NCBI RefSeq assembly: GCF_056712565.1
Contig: NZ_CM160072.1
DNA length: 64,000 bases
Strand: one strand, 5' to 3'
The position numbers were made by a program. The first letter of the stretch is position 1; each line of letters opens with the position of its first letter. Positions 59,501 through 62,500 of the stretch are shown one piece after another.

Positions 59501-62500
59501 AAGAGTGCAGGGGTGAACGGGAACAGAAGATCATTAGCTATAGACTACTTGAATCAGATTATGGACAGTAGACAGCCTTTTCTTCTTGTTACAGAAAATA
59601 AAACTTTTGAGAACGTTGTTTTAACAGGCATCGAATACACAGAAGAGGCAAGCGAATCCCTGGTATTTGATCTTAGCTTTGAGCAAATAAGATTAGTGTC
59701 TTATGGCACAGTAAACACTGTAGCTATCAAAACACAGCCATCTAAGAACATCGGGGCTAATATGAAAAAACGTGTTAACACTGAAAAATCAAGTAGTGAA
59801 GGTGAAGACACTATTACTCCTGCCTTTAAACAGGAATAGCCGTAAATGCCTCTAAAACGCTCTGTAACGATGTAATTATAAAAGAGGCTCAATCTATGTT
59901 GAAGCCTCTTTATTGCGTCTATGGCGTTGTTTTACGCCTTAAATTTGATTTTTTATTGATTGATAAGCCTTTCTCTATTTCAGGGTAGCGTAGAAGCTCA
60001 ATATATTTTTTAAGCTCTACTGGAGAAGCTGCATTCTTGCTATATGTGCGGAATGTCTCTGTATTGCCGCGTGTATGGCCCAGGAGAAGGGCGATCCTGT
60101 CTTCTGGAATTTGATTTCGATCAAGAAGCTGTGCTACTCCGTGTCTCAGAGAATGAAACACCTTCCTTTCTGTTCCCTTTTCCCCTAAAGCCTTTCGTTT
60201 AGCTCTTGTAAATCTCTGCGTGTGCCACGTGGAACGTTTACCATCAGCACGCTCTGTAATGCTGGCGTGATAGAACAAAAAGCCATTGTGAGGCTTTTCA
60301 CGCAGCGACAACACCAACGGAGTGATAAGGCTATGTACAGGCACAACACGTGCCGCAGCTTTCGTCTTTCCCTGTGTGATTTCAAAACACAGCACACCTT
60401 CGATCTCTTTCACATCGTCTATTGTGAGACTTGCTATCTCATTGATCCGCATACCTGTATAAGCACCGATAAGACACAAAGCCATCATTTCTTTGTTTTC
60501 TGCTGAATTACCGGAAAATACTTGCAACACCTGCAATAGCTCTTTGTTAGAAAATGCCTCGTAGCTCTCTCTACTTTGTGCCACATCAAGCCTATGCCCT
60601 CGCCAGGGGGAGAGCGCCCTTTCTGGCGCATCGTGGTAACGTGATGAAGCTAACTCCCATAGCTGGGCCATTGGGCTGATATAATTTGCAATTGATTGTT
60701 GTGAAAGGGTTTTTTGCATGTGTTCAATCCAGCCTGTAACAGTGGTGCGGCTCACATCTTGCAATGCAATATCAGGCTTTTTACGGTAGGAGAGAAACAT
60801 CTCTACCGCTTTTCTTGCCTTAGCTAAAGTGGCTGGCTTCTTCTTCGTGCTGTTAATTGTCAGGTAGATTTCAAGAATTTTAAGCAATGACGGACACGAA
60901 GACGCTGTATCTTGCATTCTGGTAGCTGTTTTGGCGTATTTAGCCTTACTGCGTAACAGCTCCAGCGTGTTCTCTATTGTGCTGTTTACAGGGGCGACAC
61001 TCTCCCGTAGACAATGGTACTCATCTGCAATCTGATCACGCTTTCTACGTGCAACACGAAGGTTACTTGTATGTAGACTCCTGACAAACGTCCTTTTTCC
61101 TTCAAAAAAGGGCTGCATATACACAGGCAGCGTGATCCGTAAATAGTAGTTACCGTAAGAATCACAGATTATGTATTGATTGGGCTTGTATCTCATAAAC
61201 TCCCCGGCTAAAGTGTCGGAGCGTTTGTAATGTGAAAATTGATTGTAACGCATAGAAAATGATAATTTTTTCTATAAGATTCAATCAATTAGTAATGGTC
61301 GTAGGTGATGGCATTAACACGAGATTAATCGAGTGTTTTACTCCTATTATCGGCACCATTCTAACGTCTCCCCAAGTCTACTCAAGTATTTAAAAACCTC
61401 TTATAATCAGTATATTAATGCCCCTTTTAGTCTTTTGACGTCTATTTAAGTACCCCAAACTCTACAAGCAATTGAGGGGATTTGCTGTTCAGTTTAGTGG
61501 AGATACCCCCAAGTGAAACTCAATGCCCGTCAAATAGACACTGCCAAGCCAAAAGAGAAGGCTTACAAGTTGGCTGATGGTGGTGGTCTGTACCTCCTGG
61601 TAAAACCTGGTGGAGGAGAATATTGGCGTCTCAAGTATCGTGTAGCTGGTAAAGAGAAGCTGTTAGCACTAGGTGTGTATCCTGAGGTCACCTTAGCTGA
61701 TGCTCCTGCAAAACTTGAAGAAGCTAAAAGAGGTATCTCTGGGGGAATCGATCTGATGGAAGTGAAGCGAGAGGAAAAGATTGCCCGGGAAACGCAGTTA
61801 AACAACACCTTCAAAGATATTGCCCTTGAGTGGCACAGTAACAAATTATAATCACAATAATAGTGTATATAATTATACATTGTATGCTTGGTAATCATAT
61901 AATGATAAAAGCTTCCGATAATCAGTATGAGATTTGTCCTTAAACTCCTGGACATGCTTTTCTAAATCTTCCAATGGTATATGTCCATTTATACAAATAA
62001 AATTCTAGTGATAAATACCTTCAGGTATGATTAGACAACATCTTTATTCGATGGGGGTTAATCTATATTTGATATCTTTCTTTTAAATAACAACGCCATT
62101 AAAAACGCTTTGTTTAATGACGTTTTTTTATTGTTTCCTATATAAAGCCTAACCAGCATAAACATTGGTGGCTCTTATGCTCATTGTAATTAAATGAGAG
62201 TGTGATTAATGTCTTTATATATTCTGGTAGTTATTCTCTCCAGAAGAATACATTGTAAGAAGATGACTGTTAGTATGTTTTAACATCAATTAACATTAAG
62301 GTTTGATAATAATTTTTTGTTGGCGAGTTCAAATGTTTTCATTTCATCATCTGATAGCCCGCTCCAGATTTTCTTTAGCATTACATTTTGAGTGTTTATT
62401 AGTTTTTGAGCAAGTGTAACTCCGTCAGGGGTTAAGCAAATACTTTTGCTTCGACGATCGTTTTTATTATTAATTCTTTTGGCAATATTCTTTTTTTCTA

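Follow-up and report, generated by a model that had tools for sequence, protein, structure and literature searches.

The truncated integrase gene found beyond the second att repeat of an Escherichia coli thrW locus is very probably the dead 5′ remnant of an integrase at the tRNA-proximal edge of the vat island, with a 12.7 kb element having been inserted later between this stub and thrW. The locus was studied in a window of 64,000 nucleotides (contig NZ_CM160072.1 of RefSeq assembly GCF_056712565.1), which covers the proBA-thrW region, and the coordinates of its features are collected in Table 1. It is concluded that the region is layered in the order thrW, the 12.7 kb element, the P4-like island (int′, vatX, vat and an IS1 remnant), a relic att site, a second integrase fragment of the SfII type (int″) and yagU. 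The orientation of these parts and their orthologous flanks point to a stack of three layers, in which the youngest lies next to the tRNA gene and the oldest furthest from it.

Table 1. Features of the thrW locus within the 64,000-nucleotide window
Feature	Position	Strand	Evidence or remarks
thrW, tRNA-Thr(CGT), intact, integration target	48538-48613	+	ARAGORN; sole tRNA gene in the window
attL of the 12.7 kb element (thrW 3′ end)	48590-48614		exact core 48595-48613; direct repeat, pattern search
Integrative element, youngest layer	48615-61334		bounded by exact att cores
Intact tyrosine integrase of the element	59919-61253	-	Pfam DUF6538, Phage_int_SAM_5 and Phage_integrase
Second att copy	61335-61359		serves the 12.7 kb element as attR and the older vat island as tRNA-proximal att
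Left arm of the older P4-like island	61360-61512	+	86-91% identity to the thrW-to-int spacer of intact islands
Truncated P4-family integrase pseudogene	61513-61851	+	112 codons and stop, GTG start; ORF call, Pfam, alignments
Truncation breakpoint	61848/61849		homology to intact integrases stops after ...CAAATTA
AT-rich non-coding spacer	61852-62285		GC about 0.29-0.30
vatX, MarR-family regulator of vat	62286-62810	-	Pfam MarR, annotation, PMC6956023
vat, 3′ part with beta-barrel domain, runs off the window	62936-64000	-	Pfam Autotransporter, E 2e-34

The first-pass annotation, made from the window alone, had described the stub as a 112-codon N-terminal fragment of a P4-family integrase located 155 bp past the second att repeat. 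The identification and the position hold, and the distance is 153 nt instead. The stub matches the Pfam family PF13356 (Arm-DNA-bind_3) with an E value of 9.3e-24 and covers the profile in full (positions 1-83 of 83), and it aligns without gaps with residues 1-112 of two intact 404-aa integrases, from strains 2015C-3108 and EC20, at 92% amino acid identity. Homology to integrase N-termini, on which the earlier description depended, is thus confirmed by alignment. The GTG start is common to the stub and both intact integrases, and the nucleotide identity to the intact thrW integrases is 86-91% when the upstream arm is included. In the intact proteins, Pfam places Arm-DNA-bind_3 at residues 3-88, Phage_int_M at 100-194 and Phage_integrase at 206-371. 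The stub therefore contains the whole arm-type DNA-binding domain plus 13 residues from the start of the central domain; ending at residue 112, it gives no Pfam match to PF22022 (Phage_int_M), and the catalytic domain PF00589 with its catalytic tyrosine is absent from it. A tblastn search for the C-terminal part over positions 61300-64000 of the window and downstream of vat in ATCC 11775 recovered residues 1-112 only. With the core-binding and catalytic domains missing, the stub belongs to the P4 family by descent only and is no working integrase. Its RefSeq annotation is a pseudogene, "incomplete; missing C-terminus".

The way in which the gene was truncated can be read from the breakpoint. 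The TAA stop (61849-61851) arises from the junction itself, and the GC content falls from 0.47-0.485 within the stub to 0.30 directly past it. When the segment 61360-62290 was searched against 5,426 complete E. coli genomes, the full query was found at 99% identity or more in 540 of them, where the underlying annotations are "Arm DNA-binding domain-containing protein" and "MarR family". A second class of about 460 genomes matches at 80-95% identity and carries a full-length "tyrosine-type recombinase/integrase" at this place; among the matches listed, those to intact integrases end at query position 489-492, the latter being window position 61851. The truncation is a deletion or replacement junction, not point-mutational decay. 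This refines the first-pass annotation, in which the older integrase had been called decayed.

Intact relatives of the older island are present at the same tRNA gene. Integrases of this kind were expected to be found intact beside a tRNA gene, and in 2015C-3108 and W170 the intact gene indeed adjoins thrW directly. The same adjacency is retained by the stub, which has a copy of the att core 153 nt upstream and adjoins thrW itself in 331 genomes. The intact thrW islands, of the P4-like, satellite or PICI type (integrases WP_000772650.1 in FWSEC0009 and WP_000772642.1 in 2015C-3108), share with the window the att core, the left arm with TGGGGGTAYTT repeats, the GTG start and 92% amino acid identity over residues 1-112. 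They differ from it in that the integrase is complete at 404 aa and is followed by AlpA-type HTH, AntA/B, Icd-like and primase genes, whereas the window has AT-rich DNA, vatX and vat beyond codon 112. Downstream of the intact integrase in O104:H4 FWSEC0009, EC20 and W170, the genes encode an AlpA-type HTH protein, AntA/B, an Icd-like protein, DUF4222 and a primase, which are types typical of P4-like or PICI-type satellites. W170 had been suspected from a product name to be an independent arm-only truncation; this was ruled out, as its integrase gene is full-length at 1,215 nt.

The left arm itself has been damaged. The intact island of FWSEC0009 carries a direct-repeat pair, TGGGGGTACTTTTGGGGGTAT, twice: once between the core and int, in the left arm, and once in the right arm, where it lies about 67 nt from attR. 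These pairs are putative arm-type binding sites. In the window, one of the two TGGGGGTAYTT repeats has been lost to a 12-nt deletion between 61471 and 61472, and the surviving repeat (61472-61484) is mutated to TTGAGGGGATTTG.

Direct copies of the 3′ end of the tRNA gene delimit the 12.7 kb element. Two exact copies of the 19-nt core ACTCCTATTATCGGCACCA are present in the 64 kb, at 48595-48613 and 61340-61358, against a chance expectation of 0.01, and the spacing between the cores is 12,745 bp. A direct-repeat search extends the similarity to 48590-48614 and 61335-61359, with 23 of 25 bases matching; the TT at 61338-61339 stems from the element, whereas thrW has CG at those positions. The element encodes a resolvase, a replication initiator, a major capsid protein, a tape-measure-like protein, a tail/baseplate protein and its own integrase, the RefSeq start of which is placed 19 codons further in, and it contains iteron-like repeats. 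The N-terminus of this integrase is unrelated to the stub, and a blastp comparison with the P4-like integrase gave E 0.01 only, with no significant similarity outside the catalytic fold. At least 80% of the element is carried by about 192 genomes, and it is apparently still mobile. A near-identical copy resides at thrW in GPEC548, where the vat island is absent and the element is followed by yagP′-paoDCBA-yagU; its attR is the same as that of the window, including the element-derived TT. The two copies are at most about 2 nt apart in 12.7 kb, whereas backbones like these diverge by about 2.3% in their chromosomal flanks, so the element must be much younger than its host backbones. In FWSEC0009 the same element family stands in front of an intact P4-like island. 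A literature search on satellites of Vequintavirinae phages returned nothing relevant.

The order of insertion is best approached through alleles in which the element is missing. A synthetic empty-site query, consisting of thrW joined to position 61360 onward, matches ATCC 11775 at 100% across the junction, and a longer query was built so that only empty sites attain 80% coverage. The genomes with thrW directly on the stub number 331 and include ATCC 11775, S88, IHE3034, APEC O18 and PMV-1; the tandem junction of the type seen in the window occurs in at most 70 genomes. Outside the element, ATCC 11775 differs from the window by one mismatch over 44000-48614 (4,614/4,615 nt) and by none over 61340-64000 (2,661/2,661 nt). 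These left and right alignments overlap in the att core only, which is the signature of a precise site-specific insertion. Other mobile DNA has used the same slot before the same stub. In UPEC 536 it is filled by another island, which carries Ag43 and CbtA/CbeA and has an Arm-DNA-bind_3 integrase at its distal end (PMC7545054), and in VTB97379v by a prophage with a 47-nt core repeat. The vat island stands alone in ATCC 11775, S88, IHE3034 and other genomes, and the 12.7 kb element stands alone in GPEC548. Each layer also has its own integrase or integrase remnant: an intact one of the DUF6538 type, the P4-type stub and, outside the window, a 3′ remnant of the SfII type.

Given the empty junctions, the ATCC 11775 match, the GPEC548 copy and the other occupants of the slot, successive insertion is well supported, and the proposal of the first-pass annotation that the element was placed between thrW and an older island has been sustained, as has its suggestion that comparison with other E. 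coli thrW loci would be informative (stub with vatX in 540 of 5,426 genomes, thrW abutting the stub in 331 genomes). The arrangement resembles the tandem accretion known at tRNA genes, for example PAI III536 and the SfII/SfV/P22-type prophages at thrW, in which the same thrW 3′ end is used by differing integrases, every insertion regenerates the tRNA gene, and a core copy is left between neighbours. There is no difference in kind, and the window represents one more combination of elements.

The older island can be identified with one that is already described. It is the vat island, or VAT-PAI, of avian and uropathogenic E. coli (Parreira and Gyles 2003, Infect Immun 71:5087; Nichols et al. 2016, J Bacteriol 198:1487; both cited in PMC6956023 and PMC6592367), with which the window locus shares the position from proA/thrW to yagU and the genes vat and vatX. 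An island located between proA/thrW and yagU has been reported to carry vat and vatX (PMC6592367, PMC6956023, PMC7545054); the vacuolating toxin activity of Vat and its regulation by VatX have been reported as well (PMC6956023). The same placement between thrW and yagU is found here, yagU being seen in the reference strains, outside the window. Loci with annotated vat and MarR-family genes are 100% (ATCC 11775) or 99.8% identical to the window. The RefSeq vatX gene measures 495 nt and lies inside the longer ORF given in Table 1. In E. coli, the AT-rich spacer that separates the stub from vatX does not occur apart from the vat island.

The far end of the vat island lies beyond the window and was followed in other strains. 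Past vat, the ATCC 11775 locus has an IS1 remnant and then a short minus-strand pseudogene labelled "integrase", after which come a hypothetical gene and yagU. Homology to vat-less strains resumes about 160 nt before yagU, and a vat-specific segment of about 7.65 kb stands in place of yagP′-paoDCBA. The short pseudogene was considered as the missing C-terminal piece of the stub and rejected, the gene being a different one of the SfII type: its 172 nt are 90.7% identical to the 3′ end of the int gene of Shigella phage SfII and about 90% identical to the integrase genes of SfV, SfI and SfIV. Phages of the SfII/SfV/SfI/SfIV type integrate into thrW through a 46-nt core (PMC3636060). The SfII attP core starts 14 nt past the int stop codon, on the opposite strand, so in a lysogen the integrase directly adjoins thrW and faces it, and an SfII-type integrase is found directly on tRNA-Thr in O157:H7 and many other E. 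coli genomes. Since such a 3′ scrap of an SfII/P22-type integrase lies beyond the vat island, the stack has three layers and the vat island is its middle layer.

The first-pass annotation had suggested that a third, degenerate att repeat might be found further downstream. In vat strains, the SfII homology reaches ...TCAATAGGTTAC / TTTAAA and ends where the core should start. In AVS0467 and MRY15-131, which have no vat at this position, the same SfII arm adjoins an intact copy of the thrW core. The vat strains have there a degenerate core, TATATTATC-CAT, which corresponds to the core TATTATCGGCACCAT minus 5 nt. It is preceded by ATCTGTT, resembling the ATTTGTT of the attR arm of the P4-like island in FWSEC0009, and about 70 nt to the left of the degenerate core there is a GGGGGTAT motif. 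A 19-mer search allowing up to 3 mismatches in the locus of strain 536 found no third copy, blastn-short returned chance 7-10-mers only, local alignment of the vat island right arm with the attR arm of the intact island did not score above shuffled sequences, and a fitting-alignment scan did not rank the relic uniquely. The degenerate repeat exists at the far end of the vat island, and taken alone it is too decayed to be statistically distinguishable from the background. It is accepted because the orthologous SfII arm abuts intact cores in AVS0467 and MRY15-131. The two ends of the island are carried by almost equal numbers of genomes, 540 for the left stub and 544 for the right end.

Two alternatives concern the history of the layers. 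A reversed order, in which the P4-like vat island entered the distal att copy of an already resident 12.7 kb element, is conceivable to the extent that either att copy of a resident element is a possible target in principle and that arrays of the same order stand before a live P4-like island in FWSEC0009. It is nevertheless hardly credible, because the vat-island genomes lacking an intervening element far outnumber those with the tandem junction, because the near identity of the element to its GPEC548 copy makes it far younger than the backbones, and because the vat island, with no working integrase and only a decayed right att, cannot be a recent integrant. A more serious alternative touches the cargo claim only and is otherwise compatible with the main explanation. 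Here, the vat-vatX module would not be the original cargo of the island but a separate arrival that took the place of the interior of the P4-like satellite, for example through IS1-mediated or illegitimate recombination. The abrupt GC step at the breakpoint and the IS1 remnant beside vat speak for this, as do the intact relatives inspected, all of which carry satellite-type genes and none of which carries vat; vat linked to an intact P4-like integrase was not seen in any genome examined. The AT-rich spacer adds to this side, as an exact 24-mer scan of species-representative genomes for its presence in other species detected only a chicken-gut MAG contig, which is mis-binned E. coli DNA. Against it, the module sits exactly between the left arm of the island and the relic right end, so that both ends still frame vat-vatX, and the spacing of the GGGGGTAT motif from the relic core (about 70 nt) is close to that in the intact FWSEC0009 island (about 67 nt). 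Hence, the GC step, the IS1 remnant and the vat-free intact relatives favour replacement of the interior, and the framing by both island ends favours vat as cargo or is at least compatible with it; the separate arrival is given a substantial chance, somewhat short of even. The MarR-like and autotransporter genes noted beside the stub by the first-pass annotation are vatX and vat, and it is their description as remaining cargo that this alternative contests.

The other point to be weighed is whether the stub is dead. It might have been retained as a stand-alone arm-type DNA-binding protein, for example one hindering related P4-like integrases or stabilising the vat island. Its native start codon and upstream region are kept, its ORF is uninterrupted in nearly all of the 540 carriers, and it has a match at E 1e-49 to phrog_3423, a PHROG family of short proteins with a 157-position profile. 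Six sampled copies show no substitution over the 492 nt of 61360-61851, while the neighbouring spacer of 434 nt varies at 4 sites (p 0.048), a pattern that could reflect either weak purifying selection or the very low diversity of the locus; little weight is placed on this comparison, given the small numbers and the near invariance of the whole locus. The codon changes, polarised with two intact integrase genes, point the other way: the stub lineage has 7 non-synonymous to 6 synonymous changes against 2:16 in the intact lineages (Fisher p 0.017), and the non-synonymous ones (E36, P65, L68, S76, L81, V84, N110) include several radical replacements (R65P, R68L, P81L). Moreover, the presumed arm sites beside the stub are deleted or mutated, a 1-nt insertion additionally frameshifts it in GW-AmxH19, and a single deletion in K-15KW01 removed vatX entirely, together with the larger part of the stub and the end of vat. 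Candidate promoters and terminators around the stub did not exceed the expectation from shuffled sequence, and the RefSeq label is that of a pseudogene. Retention is accordingly regarded as very improbable, and its stronger form, a domesticated arm-binding immunity or stability factor that excludes related P4-like satellites from thrW or locks the vat island in place, as slightly more improbable again. The non-synonymous excess, the lost arm-site repeat, the frameshift and the deletion mark the stub as a pseudogene.

For the preferred reading, in which the stub is a dead remnant and the 12.7 kb element the later arrival, the following course of events is very likely. A P4-like satellite or PICI-type island would have integrated into the 3′ end of thrW. 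A deletion or an illegitimate recombination would then have joined codon 112 of its integrase to the AT-rich DNA downstream of vatX, and the loss of the core-binding and catalytic domains would have left an immobile island of about 7.2 kb with int′, vatX, vat and the IS1 remnant, a composition that is directly visible in the sequence. This truncated state would have become fixed in vat-positive E. coli. Later, the 12.7 kb element probably recombined with the intact 3′ end of thrW by means of its own, unrelated tyrosine integrase, which would duplicate the core and shift the stub 12.7 kb away from the tRNA gene. The order of these events is the one suggested by the empty-site alleles.

The locus shows ordinary layering at a well-known tRNA hotspot; the pseudogene was already annotated, the island was described in 2003, and no new biology is involved. 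The importance of the finding lies mainly in the annotation and evolutionary bookkeeping of the thrW locus. The 22 kb island of strain Ec222 is reportedly described as a single PAI that includes an SfII integrase gene; compared with such a description, the region splits into a vat core of about 7.2 kb, an independent 12.7 kb element and an SfII-type scrap. Likewise, the "thrW island" of about 20 kb in avian and extraintestinal pathogenic E. coli, which is often drawn as one unit, is a stack that consists of the short immobilised vat-vatX core and the unrelated 12.7 kb element. As the vat core is without a working integrase and its right att is decayed, vat should pass vertically or by homologous recombination and not by excision and integration, and strains that differ in whether they carry the 12.7 kb element should not on that account be counted as variants of the pathogenicity island.

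The thrW site of E. coli EC20 is occupied by a further tandem array, in which another insert lies between the tRNA gene and an intact P4-like integrase. This insert carries the genes of a GIY-YIG nuclease, a cytosine methyltransferase and a type II restriction enzyme, and a copy of the thrW core directly precedes the integrase. Just past the att core, similar sequence is found in unrelated elements as well as in the native flank (see the table), and at thrW the homology that is used may continue for a few bases outside the tRNA.

In E. coli K-15KW01, the old island's left arm breaks off after its first ~110 nt and, through a deletion, runs straight into the inside of vat. 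The truncated integrase gene, the regulator gene vatX and the final ~17 codons of vat have been lost with it; vat is annotated in this strain at 4,080 nt, compared with 4,131 nt. Between thrW and yagU, strains without vat carry a yagP fragment and the aldehyde oxidoreductase operon paoABCD; strains with the island have neither the fragment nor any part of the operon, as determined by comparing the loci of ATCC 11775 (L005, 9401-17055) and GPEC548 (L004, ~13283-18843). The vat-island/thrW junction of E. coli is also present, at 99.9% identity, in the first 824 nt of DVIU01000229.1, a 3.8 kb chicken-gut contig of the MAG 'Candidatus Scatousia excrementigallinarum', which is almost certainly E. 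coli DNA placed into the wrong genome bin.

Features of the thrW region in the window and in the compared loci
Feature	Sequence	Position	Remark
Tandem array at thrW	L002 (E. coli EC20)	1-6000	
12.7 kb element	window	48615-61334	
AAAATCAATAACTTAGC	window	48614-48645	12.7 kb element
TAAATCAATAAGTTACA	L014 (compared locus)	7003-7025	SfII arm
TAAAATCAAAGAGTTACC	L004 (GPEC548)	13279-13300	native flank
Dense direct repeats	window	51079-51530	non-coding stretch of 12.7 kb element
O-like initiator	window	53176-53829	12.7 kb element
Deletion junction	L010 (E. coli K-15KW01, NZ_CP016358.1)	7001-7130	

At least 80% of the 12.7 kb element, which separates thrW from the vat island, is present in ~192 complete E. 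coli genomes. Within it, a replication initiator adjoins iteron-like repeats. The repeat cluster contains seven copies of a ~25-nt direct repeat, TACCCCCACAGAATTCTGTTACCCC, together with 17-nt and 32-nt families, and these repeats look like the origin iterons of the O-like initiator. The element also encodes a major head protein (phrog_29 match), a tape-measure-like protein (phrog_16051 match, E 3e-53) and a tail or baseplate protein (phrog_817 match); no portal or terminase was recognisable among the scanned ORFs.

Comparison with INPHARED returned no phage resembling the element, of which any record covered at most 3%, and a literature search on satellites of Vequintavirinae phages found no published description of it. 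Short stretches at ~52946-53529 and ~59372-59475 of the window are 85-99.6% identical to E. coli phages of ~145-151 kb, including muut, inny, Mt1B1_P17, Eryne and PaulScherrer, which we take to be rV5-like Vequintavirinae. The element may be satellite-like, exploiting ~145-151 kb phages of the muut/inny type.
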